Shown in pieces: positions 6,407-51,225 of a stretch of DNA of 51,225 nt (the stretch's first letter is position 1; each line of letters begins with the position of its first letter). The position numbers and the translations under genes were made by a program. The notes below the pieces were generated by a model. That model was not told where the DNA came from and ran no database searches. It saw only the letters and a program-made list of their open reading frames with translations. The DNA is from Candidatus Omnitrophota bacterium. GTDB lineage: Bacteria > Omnitrophota > Gorgyraeia > Pluralincolimonadales > Pluralincolimonadaceae. The DNA lies in contig JAQUPL010000009.1 of assembly GCA_028716565.1 (NCBI GenBank), positions 1-51,225 on the forward strand, written 5' to 3'.

Positions 6407-6909
6407 ACACCGGACAAAAAACCGTCAGGATCCTGGGCGCTGCAGCCCTCGGCTATACCGCGTGGGCCATAGGTAATTTCTTCGCCACGCGCAGCCAGGC
6501 GCTTGCTACTGCCCGATCGCTGGCCATCGATAAAGGGATGATAAACCTCGGCGCCGGCTGCATGCGAGATCAGCTGACCATGGGGATCTGCGGCTTACCC
6601 GAGGTAGTAGTCAACGCCGATATCAACAGCGGCGGACCCAACAGCGTCGTCACCGACTTCGAGTCCGGGAGCCTGCCCTTCACCGACGGCGAGTTCGATG
6701 TAGCCTTCGCCAGCCACGTCCTGGAGCACATAGTGAACTGGGAACAGGCGCTGGATGAGTGGAACAGAATTGCGGACCGTGTTATAGTAGTGCTGCCCCA
6801 CCCGCTGAGCATAGCAGGCCGCCTGGCCCGGGAGCACGTTCAGCACTTCTCTCAGGCAGATGCCGCGGCGATCGAGGCCGCCTGGCCTAAAACCAAAGTG
6901 TTTATGTAG
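6403..6909 (+). CDS. class I SAM-dependent methyltransferase with N-terminal TM helix
   Basis: INLGAG motif I; SLPFTDGEFDVAFASHVLEH. Confidence 0.8.
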   Translation: MNTGQKTVRILGAAALGYTAWAIGNFFATRSQALATARSLAIDKGMINLGAGCMRDQLTMGICGLPEVVVNADINSGGPNSVVTDFESGSLPFTDGEFDVAFASHVLEHIVNWEQALDEWNRIADRVIVVLPHPLSIAGRLAREHVQHFSQADAAAIEAAWPKTKVFM

Positions 6910-6921
6910 TGCATAACCCCC

Positions 6922-6949
6922 TTGACAAACCTAAATAACCGTGTATAAT
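6922..6949 (+). promoter_or_regulatory. sigma70-type promoter flanked by two TTATGCAC boxes (6909-6916, 6952-6959, minus strand)
   Basis: TTGACA-N16-TATAAT upstream of the ParB-like gene. Confidence 0.8.
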
Positions 6950-7044
6950 GAGTGCATAACTGGTTTGGGTAGGTAATGAGAGACGAGAGACGTATTTAGG
7001 CATACACCACAGTGTGGGGTATGCCTATTTTTGTGGGAGGCTAC

Positions 7045-7695
7045 ATGGAAATCGTACACATGGCGATCCACCGGATCCAGGAGGAGCCGTGCTCCGCGCC
7101 CCGGGCGCTGGACGAAAGCATAAAGAAGTATGGCATACTTCACCCCATACTGCTTTACCAGGATGACGATGGTATATATATCCTGGTCGACGGACGCCGG
7201 CGGTTCTCGTGCGCCGTCAGGCAGGGGCTAAAGACCGTCCCCGCGATAATTCTCCCGGGCGACGTGTGCAAGGAGCTCGTCGGACTATCGGAGCACTACA
7301 GCCGGTCGCCATCACCGGCGATCGAGGCCGAATATTTTGCCGCCCTCATATCCGGAGGCATGACGCAGACGGAGCTGGCCGGCGCCCTGGGTATCAGCCA
7401 GGCCAAGATCAGCCAGCGCCTGGCGCTGCGCGAGAAACTTATCCCCGAGTTCTTCGAGATGCTGCGCGCCGGCACGCTCATAGCAACAGTGGCCAGAGAA
7501 ATCACTTCCCTCGATAGCCAGGCGCAGCGCACGTTGTTGAAACAGGCTGCGAAAGGCCAGAGGCTGACCATTAAGTATCTGAACGGCCTCAAGCGCGAGA
7601 AAATGATGGCGACGCTGGACCTGGTACCGGTCCCCGAGATCCCCACCAACAAAGGATCCTTAAAATCATGCCCGCACTGCGGGAAGGAGTTATAG
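7045..7695 (+). CDS. ParB/Spo0J-like protein (ParBc domain + HTH)
   Basis: SIKKYGILHPILL, ILVDGRRRFSCA, HTH MTQTELAGALGISQAKISQRL; SD GGAGG. Confidence 0.85.
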   Translation: MEIVHMAIHRIQEEPCSAPRALDESIKKYGILHPILLYQDDDGIYILVDGRRRFSCAVRQGLKTVPAIILPGDVCKELVGLSEHYSRSPSPAIEAEYFAALISGGMTQTELAGALGISQAKISQRLALREKLIPEFFEMLRAGTLIATVAREITSLDSQAQRTLLKQAAKGQRLTIKYLNGLKREKMMATLDLVPVPEIPTNKGSLKSCPHCGKEL

Positions 7696-12031: not shown

Positions 12032-12117
12032 TTATGCACACCCCCTGAACGTGACAGTGGTGAGTTATGCACACTTTAGGCCGAGTTATGCACATATCAC
12101 AAGGGGAGTTATGCACA
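12032..12117 (+). repeat. four TTATGCACA boxes (12032, 12065, 12086, 12109)
   Basis: Exact 9-mers, each preceded by AG; match the DnaA-box consensus TTATNCACA. Confidence 0.9.
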
Positions 12118-12129
12118 TGGTAGGTGACT

Positions 12130-12507
12130 ATGTTTAAAAAAGCCCGGGATATCATCAGCGAGCAGTGTGCCCTGGGAGCCCGCCCGGCGGAGATCCGGAA
12201 GAAGCTCATATCTGAAACTACTCTCTCGGTGGACGAGGTAAAGATGATAATGAAGGAGCTGCTGCCGGCAGAGGAAATGAAGCGGGCCCAGGCCATCTTC
12301 GATCAGATGATAAAGGAGAGCGGTCTCCCCGATATCATGGTCAAAGAGATCCTTTTGAAAGGCGGGCGCACAAAGACGATCGCGGCTCTGAGGACGGCGA
12401 TCCGCCGCCGGCTGAAGGCCGAGACCGGGCTGACGTTCGCTCAGATCAATAAGATGGTCGGCCTGGAGGAGGGCTCTCATCATCTTTCCGAGGACGTGAT
12501 GGGTTGA
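12130..12507 (+). CDS. DnaA domain IV (Bac_DnaA_C/TrpR-like HTH)-like protein
   Basis: EILLKGGRTKTIAALRTAIRRRLKAETGLTFAQINKMVG aligns by eye with DnaA [38 protein letters not shown]; no AAA+ domain. Confidence 0.6.
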   Translation: MFKKARDIISEQCALGARPAEIRKKLISETTLSVDEVKMIMKELLPAEEMKRAQAIFDQMIKESGLPDIMVKEILLKGGRTKTIAALRTAIRRRLKAETGLTFAQINKMVGLEEGSHHLSEDVMG

Positions 12508-12508
12508 G

Positions 12509-12525
12509 TTATGCACTTATGCACA
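12509..12525 (+). repeat. two overlapping TTATGCAC boxes just after the stop codon
   Basis: TTATGCACTTATGCACA. Confidence 0.85.
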
Positions 12526-12557
12526 GGCTTATTATTATTAGATAGAGGGAGGCTTTT

Positions 12558-21052: not shown

Positions 21053-21322
21053 TCACCCGAACATTTTAAACGCCGCCACGGCGTCATAGTAAAATTCAAA
21101 GACCAGCGCCCGACCATGGGGAAAATCGATATACTCTGCGGCGACTTTGAGTGGGCACATCTGTAGATATCCAAGAGTAAGTTTAGCTTCGATACGCTCG
21201 CGACACGGGGGAGTACCTGTAACCGCATGGTCGATCTGCGTGGCAATATCCGCCAGGCGCTTGGCCTTTCTAGAGGCCAGCTCCAGCAGCTGAATAAACT
21301 CTATGCAGTTATAGTCTTCCAA
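21053..21322 (-). CDS. hypothetical protein
   Basis: TTG start after AGGGGGTG; preceded by a bipartite motif copy. Confidence 0.5.
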   Translation of the reverse strand: MEDYNCIEFIQLLELASRKAKRLADIATQIDHAVTGTPPCRERIEAKLTLGYLQMCPLKVAAEYIDFPHGRALVFEFYYDAVAAFKMFG

Positions 21323-21334
21323 AATTCACCCCCT

Positions 21335-21367
21335 ATTCTACATATCCGCCGACACTAATTGACATAA
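21335..21367 (-). promoter_or_regulatory. bipartite motif copy 1 (TTATGTC-N15-ATATGTAG-AAT)
   Basis: Same spacing in five copies. Confidence 0.7.
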
Positions 21368-21393
21368 GTTATCGTTATTCTCGCAAAGTGATT

Positions 21394-21600
21394 TTATTCC
21401 GCATCCTTCTCTCTTTTTACCCTCTTCAGAACTCCCACCATACAACGAACGGCCATGGACTGTATCCTTCTCAGGTGCTCCACGACATCCATTTCGCATT
21501 TAGTGCACAGGTATACACCCTCAGAACCGGTGATACAGATGTCGAGATACCGAACCTTATCGTTCTCTTCTACACACTGGCAAATCGAACATTTCTTCAT
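21394..21600 (-). CDS. zinc-finger protein
   Basis: CSIC..CTKC. Confidence 0.55.
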   Translation of the reverse strand: MKKCSICQCVEENDKVRYLDICITGSEGVYLCTKCEMDVVEHLRRIQSMAVRCMVGVLKRVKREKDAE

Positions 21601-21615
21601 GTAAAAACCCCCCCT

Positions 21616-21648
21616 ATTCTACATATCGATTGACTCAGGTTGACATAA
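21616..21648 (-). promoter_or_regulatory. bipartite motif copy 2
   Basis: TTATGTC aacctgagtcaatcg ATATGTAG aat. Confidence 0.7.
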
Positions 21649-21655
21649 GTTATCG

Positions 21656-21925
21656 TTATTTTCGCAAAGTGATTTTGTTCCGCATCCTTTTATCCCGGAA
21701 GCAATCACATGATATAAGCTGACCGCCGCAGACCGGGCAGCGCTCCACGTCGCAGCCGAAGTGGTGGATCTCTCCGTGCTTTATCCCGCAGTCATGGCAC
21801 CGTCCGTTACTTTCGCCGAAGTGATCGCGCCGCCTGTCGAGCCATTTACCTTTATGATATATCTTGGCATGAGTACAGCCGTCCGCCGTCCTCATTTCCT
21901 GTTCGCAGTCAAGACAAACGCCCAT
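21656..21925 (-). CDS. Cys/His-rich zinc-binding protein
   Basis: CLDC..C..RCHDCG..H..GCDVERCPVCGGQLISCDC. Confidence 0.65.
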   Translation of the reverse strand: MGVCLDCEQEMRTADGCTHAKIYHKGKWLDRRRDHFGESNGRCHDCGIKHGEIHHFGCDVERCPVCGGQLISCDCFRDKRMRNKITLRK

Positions 21926-22769: not shown

Positions 22770-23867
22770 CTAGACCACGTACATCGGCATCAGCAGGTGC
22801 ACATCGTGTCCGTATTTCACCATCGCGGGTCCTTTGTCAGATGTTGTCATCATCTTGATACTTGGTGCTGGAGAAAGCGACACGGTATCCCGCAGCAGTG
22901 AAGCGTTGAATGCTATCTTTCCGGATCCTTTACCCTGCACCATGAATTCCAATTTATGGCCATCCCCATCCTGTGACCATACCTTCACCCCGCCGCCGCG
23001 CTTGGTCTCTAAACGTAGAGGATGCAGCTTGAATTCCTTCTGCTTAATGACCGCCTTCAAGGCGTCCAGCATCTCGCCCCGGTCGAAGGTCATCGGCTTC
23101 AGGTTCTTGGGATCCGGATATATCTGCTTGTAGTCGGGGTAAGTGCCTTGTATCGGCCCTGTGCCTATAACGATATCCGGCGTGGAGAACGTCAGGTAAT
23201 TATCGCCGATGCACATAACTATCTTGTCCCGCTCGAAGGCCTTGAACAGCCGGATGGCTTCACCAGGGATTATGTACTGCCGGGGATCTCCCTTCTTGAA
23301 TTTATGGGCGGTGGTATACTTGACCCTCGTCGTCGCCATACGGAAACCGTCCGCGGCGCAGAGCTCTATCTCGCCGTCGAGGAACTTCAGACTCATGCCT
23401 GAGAGCACGGGTCGCGTGTCTTCAGTCGCCATCGCATAGGCCACCTTATTCACTGCCGGCACCAGCGCCGATATGATGATGGGCTTGGCCTTTTTCATGA
23501 TGAGCTTGTCCTTGAAATCAGGGAATTCTTTACCCGGCATGATATCGGTGATACACAGCGCCGTGCCCGAAGATATCTCCATCATCTTATCTTTCGAGAG
23601 GAGCGTCACGCTGGGCGTTTTCAGCGTATCCAGGAGGAGGAGCACCTTATCCGGGGAAACGCAGCAGCTGTCTCCTTTGGCCACGATCTTGGCCTTGACT
23701 TTGGTGGTTATCACCGCCGTCAGATCTGTGCAGGTTAGCTGCAGGCAGCCGTCAGCTGCCGCCAGCAGCACCATTTGCAGGATCGGCAGCGCCGAACGCT
23801 TAAACCGCGCCGCCCTCACCGTCTTGAGCGCCGATATGAGCGCTATTCTATTTACTGCTACTTTCAA
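22770..23867 (-). CDS. dnaN: DNA polymerase III beta sliding clamp
   Basis: 365 aa; LPILQMVLL, EDTRPVLSG, AADGFRM, GTYPDYKQI, IAFNASLL, LLMPM C-terminus. Confidence 0.92.
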   Translation of the reverse strand: MKVAVNRIALISALKTVRAARFKRSALPILQMVLLAAADGCLQLTCTDLTAVITTKVKAKIVAKGDSCCVSPDKVLLLLDTLKTPSVTLLSKDKMMEISSGTALCITDIMPGKEFPDFKDKLIMKKAKPIIISALVPAVNKVAYAMATEDTRPVLSGMSLKFLDGEIELCAADGFRMATTRVKYTTAHKFKKGDPRQYIIPGEAIRLFKAFERDKIVMCIGDNYLTFSTPDIVIGTGPIQGTYPDYKQIYPDPKNLKPMTFDRGEMLDALKAVIKQKEFKLHPLRLETKRGGGVKVWSQDGDGHKLEFMVQGKGSGKIAFNASLLRDTVSLSPAPSIKMMTTSDKGPAMVKYGHDVHLLMPMYVV

Positions 23868-29616: not shown

Positions 29617-29699
29617 TTTGATACCCCTTTTTTTAATTTTTGATACGTTCGAACCTGTATTCAATTGTGTTTTCCGTCGGAGCACCTCCCATATCAAAA

Positions 29700-29728
29700 A
29701 TATTACATCGTATTTCGTGATAAGTCAA
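29700..29728 (-). promoter_or_regulatory. sigma70-type promoter of the sigma-like gene
   Basis: TTGACT-N17-TAATAT. Confidence 0.7.
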
Positions 29729-29812
29729 TATACTTCAAAGTATATGATTCGATATATCGAATAGCTATATAAACGGATTTCCGACGAATTTTAGAAACGT
29801 GGGGCAACGTAC

Positions 29813-33662: not shown

Positions 33663-33860
33663 TCATTTTTCGGTTATTAGAGACTTACCACATCTTGGAC
33701 ACTGCGTTAGTGGCAGAACGACCAGTTTATATGGCATAGGGCATTTTATACTATCACAACTCATCATATCTTTTAATGTTGCTAACGCCTCCTTATCTAC
33801 TTCCCAGTATTCTTTAACATATACACACCCAAATATCATACATATCAATTTTTTTAACAT
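33663..33860 (-). CDS. small Cys-rich protein
   Basis: SD GGAGG; C...GC..CPRCGK. Confidence 0.5.
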   Translation of the reverse strand: MLKKLICMIFGCVYVKEYWEVDKEALATLKDMMSCDSIKCPMPYKLVVLPLTQCPRCGKSLITEK

Positions 33861-33862
33861 TT

Positions 33863-34726
33863 CTAATCCTCCCATACCTTCAAAAAGGGGTGCTCCGCAA
33901 ACACCTTGTCGTCGATATTATAGTCTTCCCCCGAGATCTCGCGCGTCACATCGTCCATGCCGACAAATTGCGTAGCCATGTACCGCTGCGCCATGGTCGA
34001 GGCTCCCCACCTAAAGAATTTCTTCACCTCGAGCTCGGAGCAATACCTGCCGACCAGCGTGACCAGCGTGCGCCGGATCGAATGGAATCCGGTGCCGTCG
34101 ATGTGCGGAACGCCGGCGGCCTCCTCGATCGACAAATATATTCTGGTAACCATGTCCTCGCTGCGGCCCGGGAAAGGGTATTCCTGGATCCACGGAACGA
34201 TCTCCCCGGGTATCTTATGCCAGCGCTCCCGGCCATGCTTCAAAGTCTTTACCAGCAGCAGGCCGCTCCCCAGGTCAATGTCTGCGATCTGCGTGCCGGC
34301 CAGCTCACCGCGGCGGTGGCCGTATGTCGTCGACAACGCGAGGAATGCCGCCTGCTCCGCTGTAAGCTCGCCGGCATGAGCAGCAGTTATAAACTTCTTT
34401 ATTAGCTCCGGGTGCATCGCCGGCGCGTAAACCTCGCTTTCGCGGACCCGGGGCGTCTCATTGCTGCGGAACGGCCACTCGAGGCCGTTCACGATGAAGA
34501 AGCGGCGCAGCGTGCGCCACTTCAAGTTGATACTGCTGTCCGCGTAGTCCTCTTTGTGGAGGTAAGCTATATACGCCATGACCGCGGCCCTGTTCGGCTC
34601 GCGGTACTTTATCTTCTCCAGGAAGTCCCTACAGAAGCTCACCAAAAGGCCTTTCGTATGCTCGTCGCTGGAAAGCGAGTCGCTATACTTCTGCAGCATA
34701 TTCTCTTTTTGTGTTTTAGTTAACAT
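33863..34726 (-). CDS. tyrosine recombinase (XerD/integrase family)
   Basis: SAM-like N domain; TYGHRRGEL (R), LKHG (K), FHSIRR (HxxR), RWG..TMAQRY (W, Y). Confidence 0.85.
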   Translation of the reverse strand: MLTKTQKENMLQKYSDSLSSDEHTKGLLVSFCRDFLEKIKYREPNRAAVMAYIAYLHKEDYADSSINLKWRTLRRFFIVNGLEWPFRSNETPRVRESEVYAPAMHPELIKKFITAAHAGELTAEQAAFLALSTTYGHRRGELAGTQIADIDLGSGLLLVKTLKHGRERWHKIPGEIVPWIQEYPFPGRSEDMVTRIYLSIEEAAGVPHIDGTGFHSIRRTLVTLVGRYCSELEVKKFFRWGASTMAQRYMATQFVGMDDVTREISGEDYNIDDKVFAEHPFLKVWED

Positions 34727-39070: not shown

Positions 39071-39106
39071 TAGCCTCCTTTAGCTATGTAGCCTCCTTTA
39101 GCTATG
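39071..39106. repeat. 18-bp tandem duplication of stop + SD
   Basis: TAGCCTCCTTTAGCTATG x2. Confidence 0.85.
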
Positions 39107-39769
39107 TGCCAGCTGCATGCCGAAAACCTGCATCCTGTAACCCTCGCGCAACTTCTTGACATCGGCGGCCAGCTGCAGCAGATCGTCCGGGGATTGCAGG
39201 TCGCTGAGCCGGTGCCTGATGGTCCTGGAGTCCTGAGTCATGGCGGAGATGATATACTGCTCTTCCTCCGGGAGCGCCGCTATCTTATCCGGGGCGGCGT
39301 CGACGCGCTCGAAAGCGTTGAGCTCGTCCTCCGCCAGGCTGATCCGCTTGACTACCTCGGGATCGGCAATATCGGAGGACCGTGCGAAGCGCATAGCCTC
39401 CGCCAGGAGACCGCTCACTGTGGAAAAATGGTCATTACCGCACGGAATGCACGCGCGGCCAGCGGCGCTAAGCTGTGACGTGCCGGCGTGGGGTGCGGTG
39501 TCATCTTCAAACCCGGGCGCCGGCGCGGGCCCGGCCATAGCGGACACGGCGGCGTCGATCGGTTTTTTACCACGGATAATATTAAGGCCGAACTCTTCGT
39601 TTAGATCGCCGCCGTTGACGGCCTGCTCCACCTTCGCGGCATGTTCGATCGCAGAGTCGTACATCTTTAAACTGGCACGATTTCTCGCCCGGACGGTAAA
39701 CTCAGTTATGATGGTATCTATGCCCATACCCAGGACATTTACACAGAACTTAACTATTGAAGGATGCAT
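39098..39769 (-). CDS. helical hypothetical protein with CIPC motif
   Basis: SD GGGAGGT before ATG 39769. Confidence 0.6.
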   Translation of the reverse strand: MHPSIVKFCVNVLGMGIDTIITEFTVRARNRASLKMYDSAIEHAAKVEQAVNGGDLNEEFGLNIIRGKKPIDAAVSAMAGPAPAPGFEDDTAPHAGTSQLSAAGRACIPCGNDHFSTVSGLLAEAMRFARSSDIADPEVVKRISLAEDELNAFERVDAAPDKIAALPEEEQYIISAMTQDSRTIRHRLSDLQSPDDLLQLAADVKKLREGYRMQVFGMQLAHS

Positions 39770-39834
39770 TTTATACCTCCCGAAGCCTCTTTGAACATAG
39801 CATAAAACCACAGCCTGGTCAAGGCCGCAGGGGG

Positions 39835-40300
39835 TGTGCATAATATGTGCATAACTCTGTGCAAAACTCCCGGAAGGCTTTTCACCCAAAAACTTTTACA
39901 CAGTCCACCCGGGCCCCTGAGTTATATTTCTGCACAAACTCTGCACAAACTCTGCACATTTTTAAGTAACTTATGCACATATTATGCACTTCGTGTGGTT
40001 CGCACTATGTTGTTTTTTTTCTAAACTACGATTGTGGTTCGCACTATGTTGTTTTGCTATATCTTCGTAAAATGGCTATTTTTGTTACCAAAAATCTTAT
40101 AGACATAAAGTAGTATAATATGTAAAGTTATAATCGTGAGAACTCCATTACATAATATTTTCCACCAACCACAACACCAAACCCCTTATTATTATGACTT
40201 ACATTTCATGTTATATATCGCTATCTGATACTTCGTAATTGTAATGTAGTGCTAATAACAGGGGGTGTGCATAACTTAAAAAACTGGTAAAACTTGACAA
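39835..40300. other. putative replication origin (box cluster + AT-rich region)
   Basis: Five exact TTATGCAC plus four TGCACA variants, mostly at 11-bp pitch; 23-nt direct repeat (39994, 40033); AT-rich; point of gene divergence. Confidence 0.7.
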
Positions 40301-40322
40301 ATTTAATCTAACTGTTTATTCT
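40294..40322 (+). promoter_or_regulatory. sigma70-type promoter, box at 40266-40274 just upstream
   Basis: TTGACA-N17-TATTCT, then SD AAAGGAGG. Confidence 0.75.
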
Positions 40323-40346: not shown

Positions 40347-41009
40347 ATGACGAAAGTTAATGTGCTCCCCGGGCCTTCAAACCCCTCAAAAGAAGAAAAC
40401 CTCAAATTTATTGAGTCTGGCGCCAGCCAAAATAAAAGGAGCCAAAAAAGTAGTCTCAAAAAGGAGCCAGAAATAACTCCAGAGCGTATACTTGTATGGC
40501 GGTGTTTATGCAACGCCGAAAGCGACAGGTTCGGCAAGGACTACATAGCTCACATCAGGGAAGCAAAAGAAAAAGGCGAGAAGGATAAGCATAAATGGCG
40601 GCTGGTCGACGCCGAAACAGGAGAGGTTCTGGCCGACAATATGCGGCAGGCGAACCTCCTCGGTCTATCCGCCACGAAAGTAGCTCACCCCCCCCAGCTC
40701 GCCTGGGGCAGCGGCCAGAAGAATAAAGATGAGGATAAAGAGGAAAAACCTGACTGGAAGCCGAGATCGCCGCTTGTCGCAAAGTGGGTCGCGGCCACCG
40801 ATGAGCTGCCCGCGGAGCTCCTCCTTCTTTATAAACTATTCTGTGATAGATGCGTAGCCATGGGTATGGAGCCGCCCAGCCGCGGAGAGTGGATAACGCA
40901 GACAATAACACAGTTTTACCTGGAACACGCCAAAGACTTCGACCTAAGAGGGATGGCCGGCGAGTTTTGCGTTAAAGTATGTGGAGGCAGTGAGAATGGA
41001 CAAAGATAA
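40347..41009 (+). CDS. hypothetical protein, first gene after the origin
   Basis: Strong SD; 220 aa. Confidence 0.65.
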   Translation: MTKVNVLPGPSNPSKEENLKFIESGASQNKRSQKSSLKKEPEITPERILVWRCLCNAESDRFGKDYIAHIREAKEKGEKDKHKWRLVDAETGEVLADNMRQANLLGLSATKVAHPPQLAWGSGQKNKDEDKEEKPDWKPRSPLVAKWVAATDELPAELLLLYKLFCDRCVAMGMEPPSRGEWITQTITQFYLEHAKDFDLRGMAGEFCVKVCGGSENGQR

Positions 41010-50171: not shown

Positions 50172-51225
50172 ATGGCTAAAGGAGGAACACCGTCACAAGG
50201 CCTTTGGATGCCGCCGAGAGTGGCAACTCTTTTTGTGGCGGCTTCCGATTCGCTGGACAAGTGCCGCGCCCAGGCGGACTATATCTGCGACGGCGTGGCG
50301 GACGAAGTTCAGATCAACGCGGCTTTGGCAGATCTGCCGGCGGGCGGCGGGCGAGTGGTGCTCTCCGAGGGTAATTTTATACTGGCGGATCCCATAATAG
50401 TTCCCGGCGATTACATTACTATCGAAGGGCAAAACTTTGCCACCGCAATAGATGGCGCCGGGTTAGCCACCGGCGAGCACGGTATCGTTATCAGTGGTAT
50501 AGCAGGATCAAAGGTAAAAAATCTCGTAATATATACGAGAGGCGGTGGCGGTAAAGTATGCCACTGTATCTTCATAGAAGCCGCCTACGATACTACTTTA
50601 GTTGAAGATGTAGCTATAGTAGAGAGTGATAGCGATGGCATACATATAGAAGGCACGGAATCCGATAATATTGTTATTAGAGGCTGCTGGATAGCTTCTA
50701 CGGATAACCACGGCATTAACATAGTGCCTGATGTAACCGAGCAGAGTCTCAGGTTCTCTATATACAATAACTTTATTACAGCTACAGGAGCCAGCGGTAT
50801 CAATTTTGGTCAGTGTGTGGGGCACTATTACCACAAGATATACAATAACCTGATGACTTCCATCGGGGACAATGGCATAGATTACGGTATCGCTACCGTG
50901 CCGACGTTCGGCCTGATGGAGAGCGAGATCAAAGACAATTATATCTACGGTGCTATCGCCAATGGTATAAGGCTGCTCTCCGACTCCAATAACAACTTCT
51001 TCGAGAACAACTTCATAAGCTCCTGCGGCGGTTACGGTATCAATATCGGCGGTCCCACCTGTATCAATAATCGCCTCATGAACAATGTACTGATCGGTAA
51101 CGTTTCCGGCGCGGCACAGGACTTAGGCGTAGGCACGCAGCTGCCGTTCATCTTCATACCGGTGCCTAATCCCTCGACCAACATCGGCGCGCACCCCGCC
51201 GAGCAGCTCACCGACGACCTGGAAG
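50172..51225 (+). CDS. beta-helix spike protein, N-terminal part (continues at 6..359; 468 aa joined)
   Basis: SD AAGGAG; VAASDS..CDGVADEVQINAALADLPAGGG; PbH1 repeats; no stop before the window end. Confidence 0.85.
   Translation, partial: MAKGGTPSQGLWMPPRVATLFVAASDSLDKCRAQADYICDGVADEVQINAALADLPAGGGRVVLSEGNFILADPIIVPGDYITIEGQNFATAIDGAGLATGEHGIVISGIAGSKVKNLVIYTRGGGGKVCHCIFIEAAYDTTLVEDVAIVESDSDGIHIEGTESDNIVIRGCWIASTDNHGINIVPDVTEQSLRFSIYNNFITATGASGINFGQCVGHYYHKIYNNLMTSIGDNGIDYGIATVPTFGLMESEIKDNYIYGAIANGIRLLSDSNNNFFENNFISSCGGYGINIGGPTCINNRLMNNVLIGNVSGAAQDLGVGTQLPFIFIPVPNPSTNIGAHPAEQLTDDLE

Follow-up and report, generated by a model that had tools for sequence, protein, structure and literature searches.

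The DNA analysed here (the window) is the whole of contig C9, 51,225 bp long, in an assembly of 18 contigs and 1.73 Mb. An ORF that leaves the 3' end of the contig resumes in frame at base 3, and on that ground the contig was taken to be a closed circle; this 51,225-bp circle is a virus-like element. Few of its some 60 ORFs were recognisable in searches of Pfam and PHROGs, and most have no known function. Those recognised encode a beta-helix spike-like protein, a parB-like protein with ParB_N/HTH_ParB matches (7012-7695), a protease, a beta-clamp (22770-23867, with 22.5% identity to the DnaN of the binned host), a tyrosine recombinase, a DUF5131 protein and a DnaJ-domain protein. The beta-clamp is the sole recognisable replication gene on the circle, and the same searches of the approximately 60 ORFs found no initiator, helicase, primase or polymerase. 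Rightward genes extend from 40347 to about 15.7 kb, crossing the contig junction at which base 51225 meets base 1, and leftward genes from 39772 to about 16.1 kb, so that the gap of approximately 575 bp between them is the point at which the two transcription arms diverge. The features of this gap are as follows.

39794..39822, minus strand: P_L, a sigma-70-type promoter from a promoter scan, with -35 TTGACC (39822-39817), a 17-nt spacer and -10 TATGTT (39799-39794)
39835..39866, minus strand: array of boxes TGTGCATAA, TGTGCATAA and TGTGCAAAA, at pitches of 11 and 12 bp
39894..39902, plus strand: isolated box TTTTACACA, converging on the last minus-oriented box
39928..39958, plus strand: three degenerate boxes, TTCTGCACA, CTCTGCACA and CTCTGCACA, at an exact 11-bp pitch
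39971..39990, plus strand: strong tandem TTATGCACA-TA-TTATGCACT, 11-bp pitch, CACA end toward the AT-rich DNA
39994..40055, plus strand: two direct repeats TGTGGTTCGCACTATGTTGTTTT, with the conserved core TGGTTCGCAC[T/A]ATGTT
40058..40257, no strand: AT-rich candidate unwinding zone, 72% A+T
40165..40195, plus strand: inner candidate module, consisting of the weak box CCAACCACA (3 mismatches), an 11-nt spacer and the T-centred trios CTT ATT ATT AT
40253..40274, minus strand: right-edge composite TAA TAA CAG - GGGG - TGTGCATAA, facing the AT-rich zone
40294..40322, plus strand: P_R, a sigma-70-type promoter with TTGACA, a 17-nt spacer and TATTCT

The TTATGCACA-type boxes fit the bacterial DnaA box consensus, TTATNCACA. 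An earlier note on this DNA had described an origin-like region with minus-oriented boxes starting at 39835, 39846 and 39858 and plus-oriented boxes starting at 39928, 39939, 39950, 39971 and 39982; these coordinates are right, the boxes being, in the same order, those listed above, and a further plus-oriented box at 39894 was absent from that description. The gradient from degenerate to exact boxes that it saw in the plus array is borne out and is kept in eleven relatives, the degenerate boxes of 39928..39958 being candidate low-affinity sites. Its two 23-nt repeats are 100% identical (39994-40016 and 40033-40055), and about 200 AT-rich nt do follow them, ending at a box (TGTGCATAA) at 40266. 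The position of this last box as the closing element thus stands, but its role proved to be larger, since it makes up a conserved composite together with a GC spacer and trios. The strong tandem forms part of a 19-nt perfect inverted repeat with 39836-39854, the boxes that adjoin the AT-rich DNA turn their CACA/TGTG ends toward it from either side, and the two opposed arrays would sit on one face of the helix. The GGTTCGCAC stretch of the 23-nt repeat has no further occurrence on the contig, and the repeat core differs from a DnaA box at three or four positions and is not a clear box. A hairpin or terminator reading of this repeat was rejected, as one arm is altered in relatives without compensation.

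The concentration of boxes is well beyond what the remainder of the contig would predict, with nine within one mismatch of TTATNCACA in the gap against an expected 0.47 (Poisson P ~2e-9), and at least ten within two mismatches, four of them exact. The 51-kb contig carries 9 of the 15 exact copies of TTATGCACA in the assembly. Nowhere else in the 1.73 Mb do three or more exact boxes fall within 600 bp, and no other origin-like repeat cluster was found on the circle.

The binned host has its dnaA at C2:69388-70749, and domain IV of the encoded protein carries the canonical recognition motifs. The 11-mer AGTTATGCACA occurs twice in the dnaA-dnaN gap of this host, the pair recurs with identical 61-bp spacing in a genome of the same genus, and TTATTCACAATTTATTCACA, just upstream of the host dnaA, makes up two boxes at an 11-bp pitch. 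Given the presence of AGTTATGCACA in the host gap, the box of the element is a host-type DnaA box, flank included. The basal unwinding system of Bacillus subtilis and Helicobacter pylori consists of one or more boxes, a short GC-rich spacer, DnaA-trios (3'-GAT-5') and AT-rich DNA (PMC8287927, PMC8235120). The host dnaA-dnaN gap (C2:69163-69387) is a textbook arrangement of this kind, with an AT-rich tract, TAGCAGTAGAAGTAGTAA (six A-centred trios), a 12-nt spacer, TGTGGACAA and four more boxes, and is likely to be an Omnitrophota oriC.

Element and host are linked solely by binning and by the identity of the box; a comparison of contig C9 with the rest of the assembly found neither a CRISPR spacer match nor an att-like one. 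A 14-kb contig of the same element family (L030, JBAZEO010000057.1) is binned with a Dehalococcoidia genome, so that host assignment by binning is inconsistent across the family. The TGCACA core of the box is four-fold depleted in host contigs C1-C8 (observed/expected 0.25, with 0.52 for TGCA and 0.22 for GTGCAC), whereas depletion in contig C9 is much milder (1.21 for TGCACA, 0.85 for TGCA and 0.54 for GTGCAC). The depletion in the host contigs may reflect restriction avoidance and may be relevant to host assignment. Since the trio grammar described below requires the AAA+ domain of DnaA, host DnaA is the natural candidate for the reader of the boxes. All strong boxes in every relative have G at position 5, a base that host DnaA would not be expected to need and that hints at a reader encoded by the element.

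Eleven relatives of the gap were recovered by way of the 406-aa protein encoded just to its right, and its layout is kept in all of them even though this protein is merely 32-57% identical. On the left, the shared order is P_L, three to five minus-oriented boxes built on the 11-nt unit ATGTGCATAAC, one plus-oriented box and a GC-rich spacer; in the middle, three weak plus boxes at an 11-bp pitch, two strong plus boxes, and TGGTTCGCAC[T/A]ATGTT once or twice; and on the right, the AT-rich zone with fixed blocks, TAATAATAAG, three or four G/C bases, TGTGCAWAA and P_R. A non-coding alignment of nine elements has a mean column identity of 68%. The weak plus array (39928..39958) is conserved in it as TnTGCACAAACTCTGCACCnACTnTGCAC, and the strong tandem (39971..39990) is nearly invariant among the relatives. 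The position of the 39894 box is occupied by an exact TTATGCACA or TTATACACA in L018, L020, L021, L030 and L033 and by the one-mismatch TTTTGCACA in L017. The core of the 23-nt repeat is kept in all relatives, as a single copy in L016, L020, L021 and L033. To the left of the gap, the 224-aa protein of gene 39098-39772 is highly conserved; it is modelled as a helical bundle, with no informative fold match and no match to Rep or winged-helix proteins. Among viral contigs, no close relatives were found with either flanking protein or with a profile of the 406-aa family, and a BLASTN search of the gap region against a phage collection found nothing.

Of all 200-bp windows of the circle, 40058-40257 has the lowest stability (z = 3.3). 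The earlier note had named melting or SIDD prediction as a check on its unwinding element, and such a prediction, made with a single-bubble model of stress-induced opening, agrees with it: a bubble is predicted at 40064-40144 (p = 0.99), one of four sites on the circle with p > 0.9. The other three (1683-1764, 29691-29773 and 33806-33867) have no DnaA boxes. Conserved DNA blocks in the AT-rich zone are CGTAAAA, ACATAAAGTA, ATTTACATAA, CACCAACCAYAAC and CTTATTATTA. A comparison of the zone with Rfam gave a chance-level match only, with no conserved RNA fold or covariation; an RNA gene was therefore rejected, and the conserved AT-rich blocks are best read as DNA-level signals.

At the right edge of this zone, the composite reads TAATAACAG-GGGG-TGTGCATAA on the top strand and, on the opposite strand, box, four G/C bases and then CTG TTA TTA. 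By the trio rule of PMC8287927 (a trio array no more than 16 nt away from a box and on the proper side and strand), 40253-40274 has three trios beyond a 4-nt spacer, and the box at 39982 has five trios beyond a 16-nt spacer. This published rule is permissive, with 22% of random host boxes satisfying it. Only 3 of 900 host boxes passed a stricter rule, against 3 of the approximately 21 boxes in the three clusters of contig C9, and the composite at 40253..40274 is among those that pass. Ten of 12 elements have the form TTWTGCACA-[G/C]3-4-CTTATTATT at this edge, with variants in the window (CTGTTATTA) and in L033 (TTATTGTTA); L016 lacks the composite, and L017 has CCCCTACATAAC in place of the trio block. 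The distant relatives L016 and L035 carry CTTATTATT on the plus side of the AT-rich zone, where it comes 2 nt after a true box.

On contig C9, CTTATTATT itself occurs only twice, at 40185 and 2 nt past a pair of boxes at 12509-12525. As the first of these lies 11 nt past the weak box CCAACCACA, two modules may face each other across 40196-40252. The second belongs to TTWTGCACA-[G/C]2-4-CTTATTATT, which also lies directly past a small gene (12509-12540) in the window, L022 and L023; no AT-rich zone adjoins it there, and a composite of this kind need not mark an origin.

Promoters flank the gap on both sides. P_L is predicted to drive gene 39098-39772, and the nine-element alignment shows both of its hexamers to be conserved. 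P_R, the best promoter match of the region (10 of 12 positions), is predicted to drive the operon that starts at 40347, and its AACTTGACAAAATC is conserved. In 10 of 11 elements, 18-20 nt separate the last box from the P_R -35 hexamer downstream of it. The minus array stands anywhere from 11 to 57 nt from the P_L -35 hexamer, depending on the relative, which argues that this array is not a fixed promoter operator, and no box of the gap overlaps a core hexamer of P_L or P_R. Boxes occur at two further loci on the circle.

6908..6959, plus strand: consensus promoter TTGACA-17-TATAAT before the parB-like gene, bracketed by AGTGCATAA at 6908 and 6951
12032..12540, plus strand: second box cluster, with four exact plus boxes before gene 12124-12507 and, after the gene, TTATGCACTTATGCACA, GG and CTTATTATTATTA

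The arrangement at 6908..6959 is kept in L023 and also in L022, where a third box falls within the spacer, and the four boxes before gene 12124-12507 extend to its ribosome site. Because boxes bracket the one promoter and surround the other gene, they appear also to act as operators, and part of their role is thus transcriptional. The 125-aa protein of gene 12124-12507 has no match to DnaA domain IV (PF08299) in Pfam at E <= 1, reaches no better than E = 27 against host DnaA domain IV in BLASTP, and gave no DnaA in a profile search of PDB sequences. Its model is confident and all-alpha (pLDDT 79), and Foldseek aligns it to DnaA chain 8btg_A over 63 columns at 2.0 A, but with a weak E-value of 8.9.

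Cumulative GC skew is lowest near 40 kb. The skew falls to about zero at four-fold degenerate sites, so that the minimum reflects coding-strand composition, and the skew was rejected as origin evidence. Depth, taken from the contig word depth of runs X1 and X2 and not from reads, is flat around the circle in these two landfill metagenomes, with no peak at the gap: for X1, 39.5-43 around the circle, with 41 at 39.3-45.9 kb against 47.9 at 12.7-15.9 kb, and for X2, 24.7-29.5, with 26.5 against 24.7 at the same two places. Flat depth lends an origin no support, and it has no bearing on one if the sample consists mostly of virions or resting copies.

The layout invites comparison with cellular origins. 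The DnaA-binding region of E. coli oriC has as its hallmark a left and a right half in which clusters of low-affinity boxes run in opposite orientations, with strong boxes as their anchors (Rozgaja et al. 2011, as cited). Like it, the gap has two opposed arrays in which close-set weak boxes lead to strong anchors, with TGTG/CACA toward the unwinding DNA; unlike it, the element has boxes on the far side of the AT-rich zone as well, carries two 23-nt repeats between this zone and the other boxes, is bordered by an outward promoter at either end, has no nameable IHF site, and lies on a viral circle rather than beside cellular origin genes. The inward orientation of the boxes is that of R1 in E. 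coli, of the host dnaA-dnaN gap and of the H. pylori description (PMC8235120). With the basal unwinding system the element shares, in the same orientation, a box, two to four G/C bases, at least three central-T trios (A on the bound strand) and AT-rich DNA. It departs from that system in having trios of the TAA/AAT type instead of TAG, only three or four of them, and a single right-edge box, and also in that its second composite, at 12.5 kb, adjoins a ribosome site but no AT-rich zone. 'Bilateral' oriC regions, with box clusters on either side of the unwinding element, exist and work (PMC13643167); the boxes of the element likewise flank AT-rich DNA on both sides and face inward, but on its right there is a single box, or a pair in L016 and L035, and no cluster.

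Mobile replicons and promoters offer other comparisons. The origins of P1 (oriR), pSC101, F and RK2 use DnaA boxes as helpers. To our knowledge, P1, F, pSC101, RK2 and lambda all encode an initiator of their own, which binds several iterons. The lambda origin also has DnaA boxes as helpers (PMC3985674). The element resembles these replicons as a mobile element with host DnaA boxes beside repeats and AT-rich DNA; it differs in having no recognisable initiator gene and in that DnaA boxes outnumber its only other repeat by about 5:1. The dnaA promoter is autoregulated, and other promoters are repressed by DnaA. As at such promoters, boxes of the element lie at or beside promoters, most clearly at 6908-6959 and before 12124, but no box of the gap covers a core promoter, and the spacing and orientation of the gap boxes exceed what repression needs. 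DnaA boxes on mobile replicons are thus already known; what is new is an oriC-like site on a virus that has no recognisable initiator, reused as a promoter code.

On these sequence comparisons, the resemblance to oriC that the earlier note pointed out is real, particular to the lineage of the host and maintained by selection: the host-type boxes, the opposed arrays, the gradient and the trio composite all uphold it. Origin function itself is a prediction. The reading that we favour, with about even confidence, is that the gap is the main cis-control region of the element and most likely holds an oriC-type origin run by host DnaA. DnaA-ATP would occupy the strong boxes at 39971/39982 and at 40266 first and would then spread cooperatively across the weak boxes spaced by 11 bp, until the filament of its AAA+ domains reached the trio strand and opened the DNA at some point within 40064-40260. 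Loading of the host helicase and polymerase would come next, aided by the beta-clamp of the element. In E. coli oriC, the minus-oriented array would correspond to the right half of the DnaA-binding region. With box operators at the promoter of the parB-like gene and at the 12.1-kb gene, replication and some early transcription would be tied to the same DnaA-box binders, which may be host DnaA and possibly also the small protein of the element.

The alternative to which we give most attention is that the gap is a transcription switch and nothing else, its boxes being operators that set the output of P_L and P_R, with replication beginning elsewhere and with host DnaA as a transcription factor, or the 12124-12507 protein, as the regulator. 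The boxes that bracket the TTGACA-17-TATAAT promoter before the parB-like gene, one of them inside the spacer in L022, speak for it, as do the four that reach the ribosome site of the small gene, the fixed 18-20 nt between the last box and the P_R -35, the position-5 G in all strong boxes, and the flat depth and lack of replication skew. Yet the distance from the minus array to P_L is not fixed (11-57 nt), the cores of P_L and P_R are free of boxes, and a switch leaves unexplained both a weak-to-strong array at 11-bp pitch aimed at the least stable DNA and the conserved trio composites; moreover, neither an initiator gene nor a further repeat cluster resembling an origin was found on the circle. 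We consider a switch alone possible but doubtful. An iteron-type origin, in which an unrecognised protein of the element would bind TGGTTCGCAC[T/A]ATGTT and open the AT-rich DNA, the DnaA boxes giving assistance only, as they do at P1 oriR, pSC101 or F, is unlikely. The repeat is unique to the gap, abuts the predicted bubble at 40064-40144 and has a core conserved in all relatives, DnaA boxes lie on both sides as at P1 oriR, and most ORFs, being without known function, leave room for such a protein; against this, there are only two copies of the repeat, and only one in four relatives, the adjacent 224-aa protein is modelled as a helical bundle with no Rep or winged-helix match, and Pfam and PHROGs searches detected no Rep family in the flanking genes or in any scanned ORF.

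Two further readings would also dispense with an origin. The site might be a sink or modulator like datA or DARS, titrating or recharging host DnaA during infection. Each copy of the element brings about ten high-quality boxes against only about five in the host oriC, and datA and DARS are likewise clusters of oriented boxes, with an IHF site that is essential at datA; but an AT-rich zone, trios and 23-nt repeats would be superfluous in a sink, its placement between promoters would be unexplained, and we regard this as very improbable. Least probable of all, and hardly to be expected, is a partition site (centromere) for the parB-like protein. Its model would be parC of plasmid R1, where two arrays of 11-bp repeats surround a promoter, and the element indeed has arrays at an 11-bp pitch beside promoters and encodes a ParB_N/HTH_ParB protein (7012-7695). 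The repeat, however, is the DnaA box of the host origin and not a palindromic parS, no ParA or ParM partner was found, and the parB-like gene lies 33 kb away with boxes of its own arranged as operators.

To return to an origin run by host DnaA, a more specific form of this idea, which we offer only tentatively, is that a double-stranded DNA virus without its own initiator behaves as a DnaA-only minichromosome, its origin copying the grammar of the host oriC and its boxes being reused as operators of early promoters. The opposed arrays and two inward-facing modules of box, GC spacer and trios would then surround the unwinding DNA. If so, copy number and expression would follow the DnaA-ATP cycle of the host, with the small box-associated protein tuning access, and a natural virus that depended solely on host DnaA and a full oriC-like site would represent a different kind of replication takeover. 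The presence of boxes at three loci suggests a regulon in which DnaA status is a general input to viral gene control. We know of no cultured model for the phylum Omnitrophota, and the gap would serve as a compact, conserved test piece for its origin grammar. The type of box may also hint at the host of this uncultured virus family.

Several structural variants were noted in passing. In L012 (8796-8848), the minus array has grown to five of the 11-nt units, compared with three in the window, which suggests slippage within the array. L020 (8880-8908) and L021 (815-843) are near-identical elements in which the 27-nt spacer between the last minus box and the next plus box is inverted, flipping a TTGACC hexamer; the inversion is flanked by boxes that form a 12-nt inverted repeat, GTGCATAACTTA/TAAGTTATGCAC. 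In L018 (6829-8733) and L019 (70-1974), the 224-aa left protein contains a LAGLIDADG intein of about 410 aa between ACIP and CGNDH. Elsewhere in the window, two 92-nt direct repeats (21322-21413 and 21603-21694), 84% identical, lie within an ORF-poor kilobase. At 39071-39106, a perfect 18-nt tandem duplication, two copies of TAGCCTCCTTTAGCTATG, covers a minus-strand ribosome site and start codon, and a related strain in run X3 has one copy fewer.
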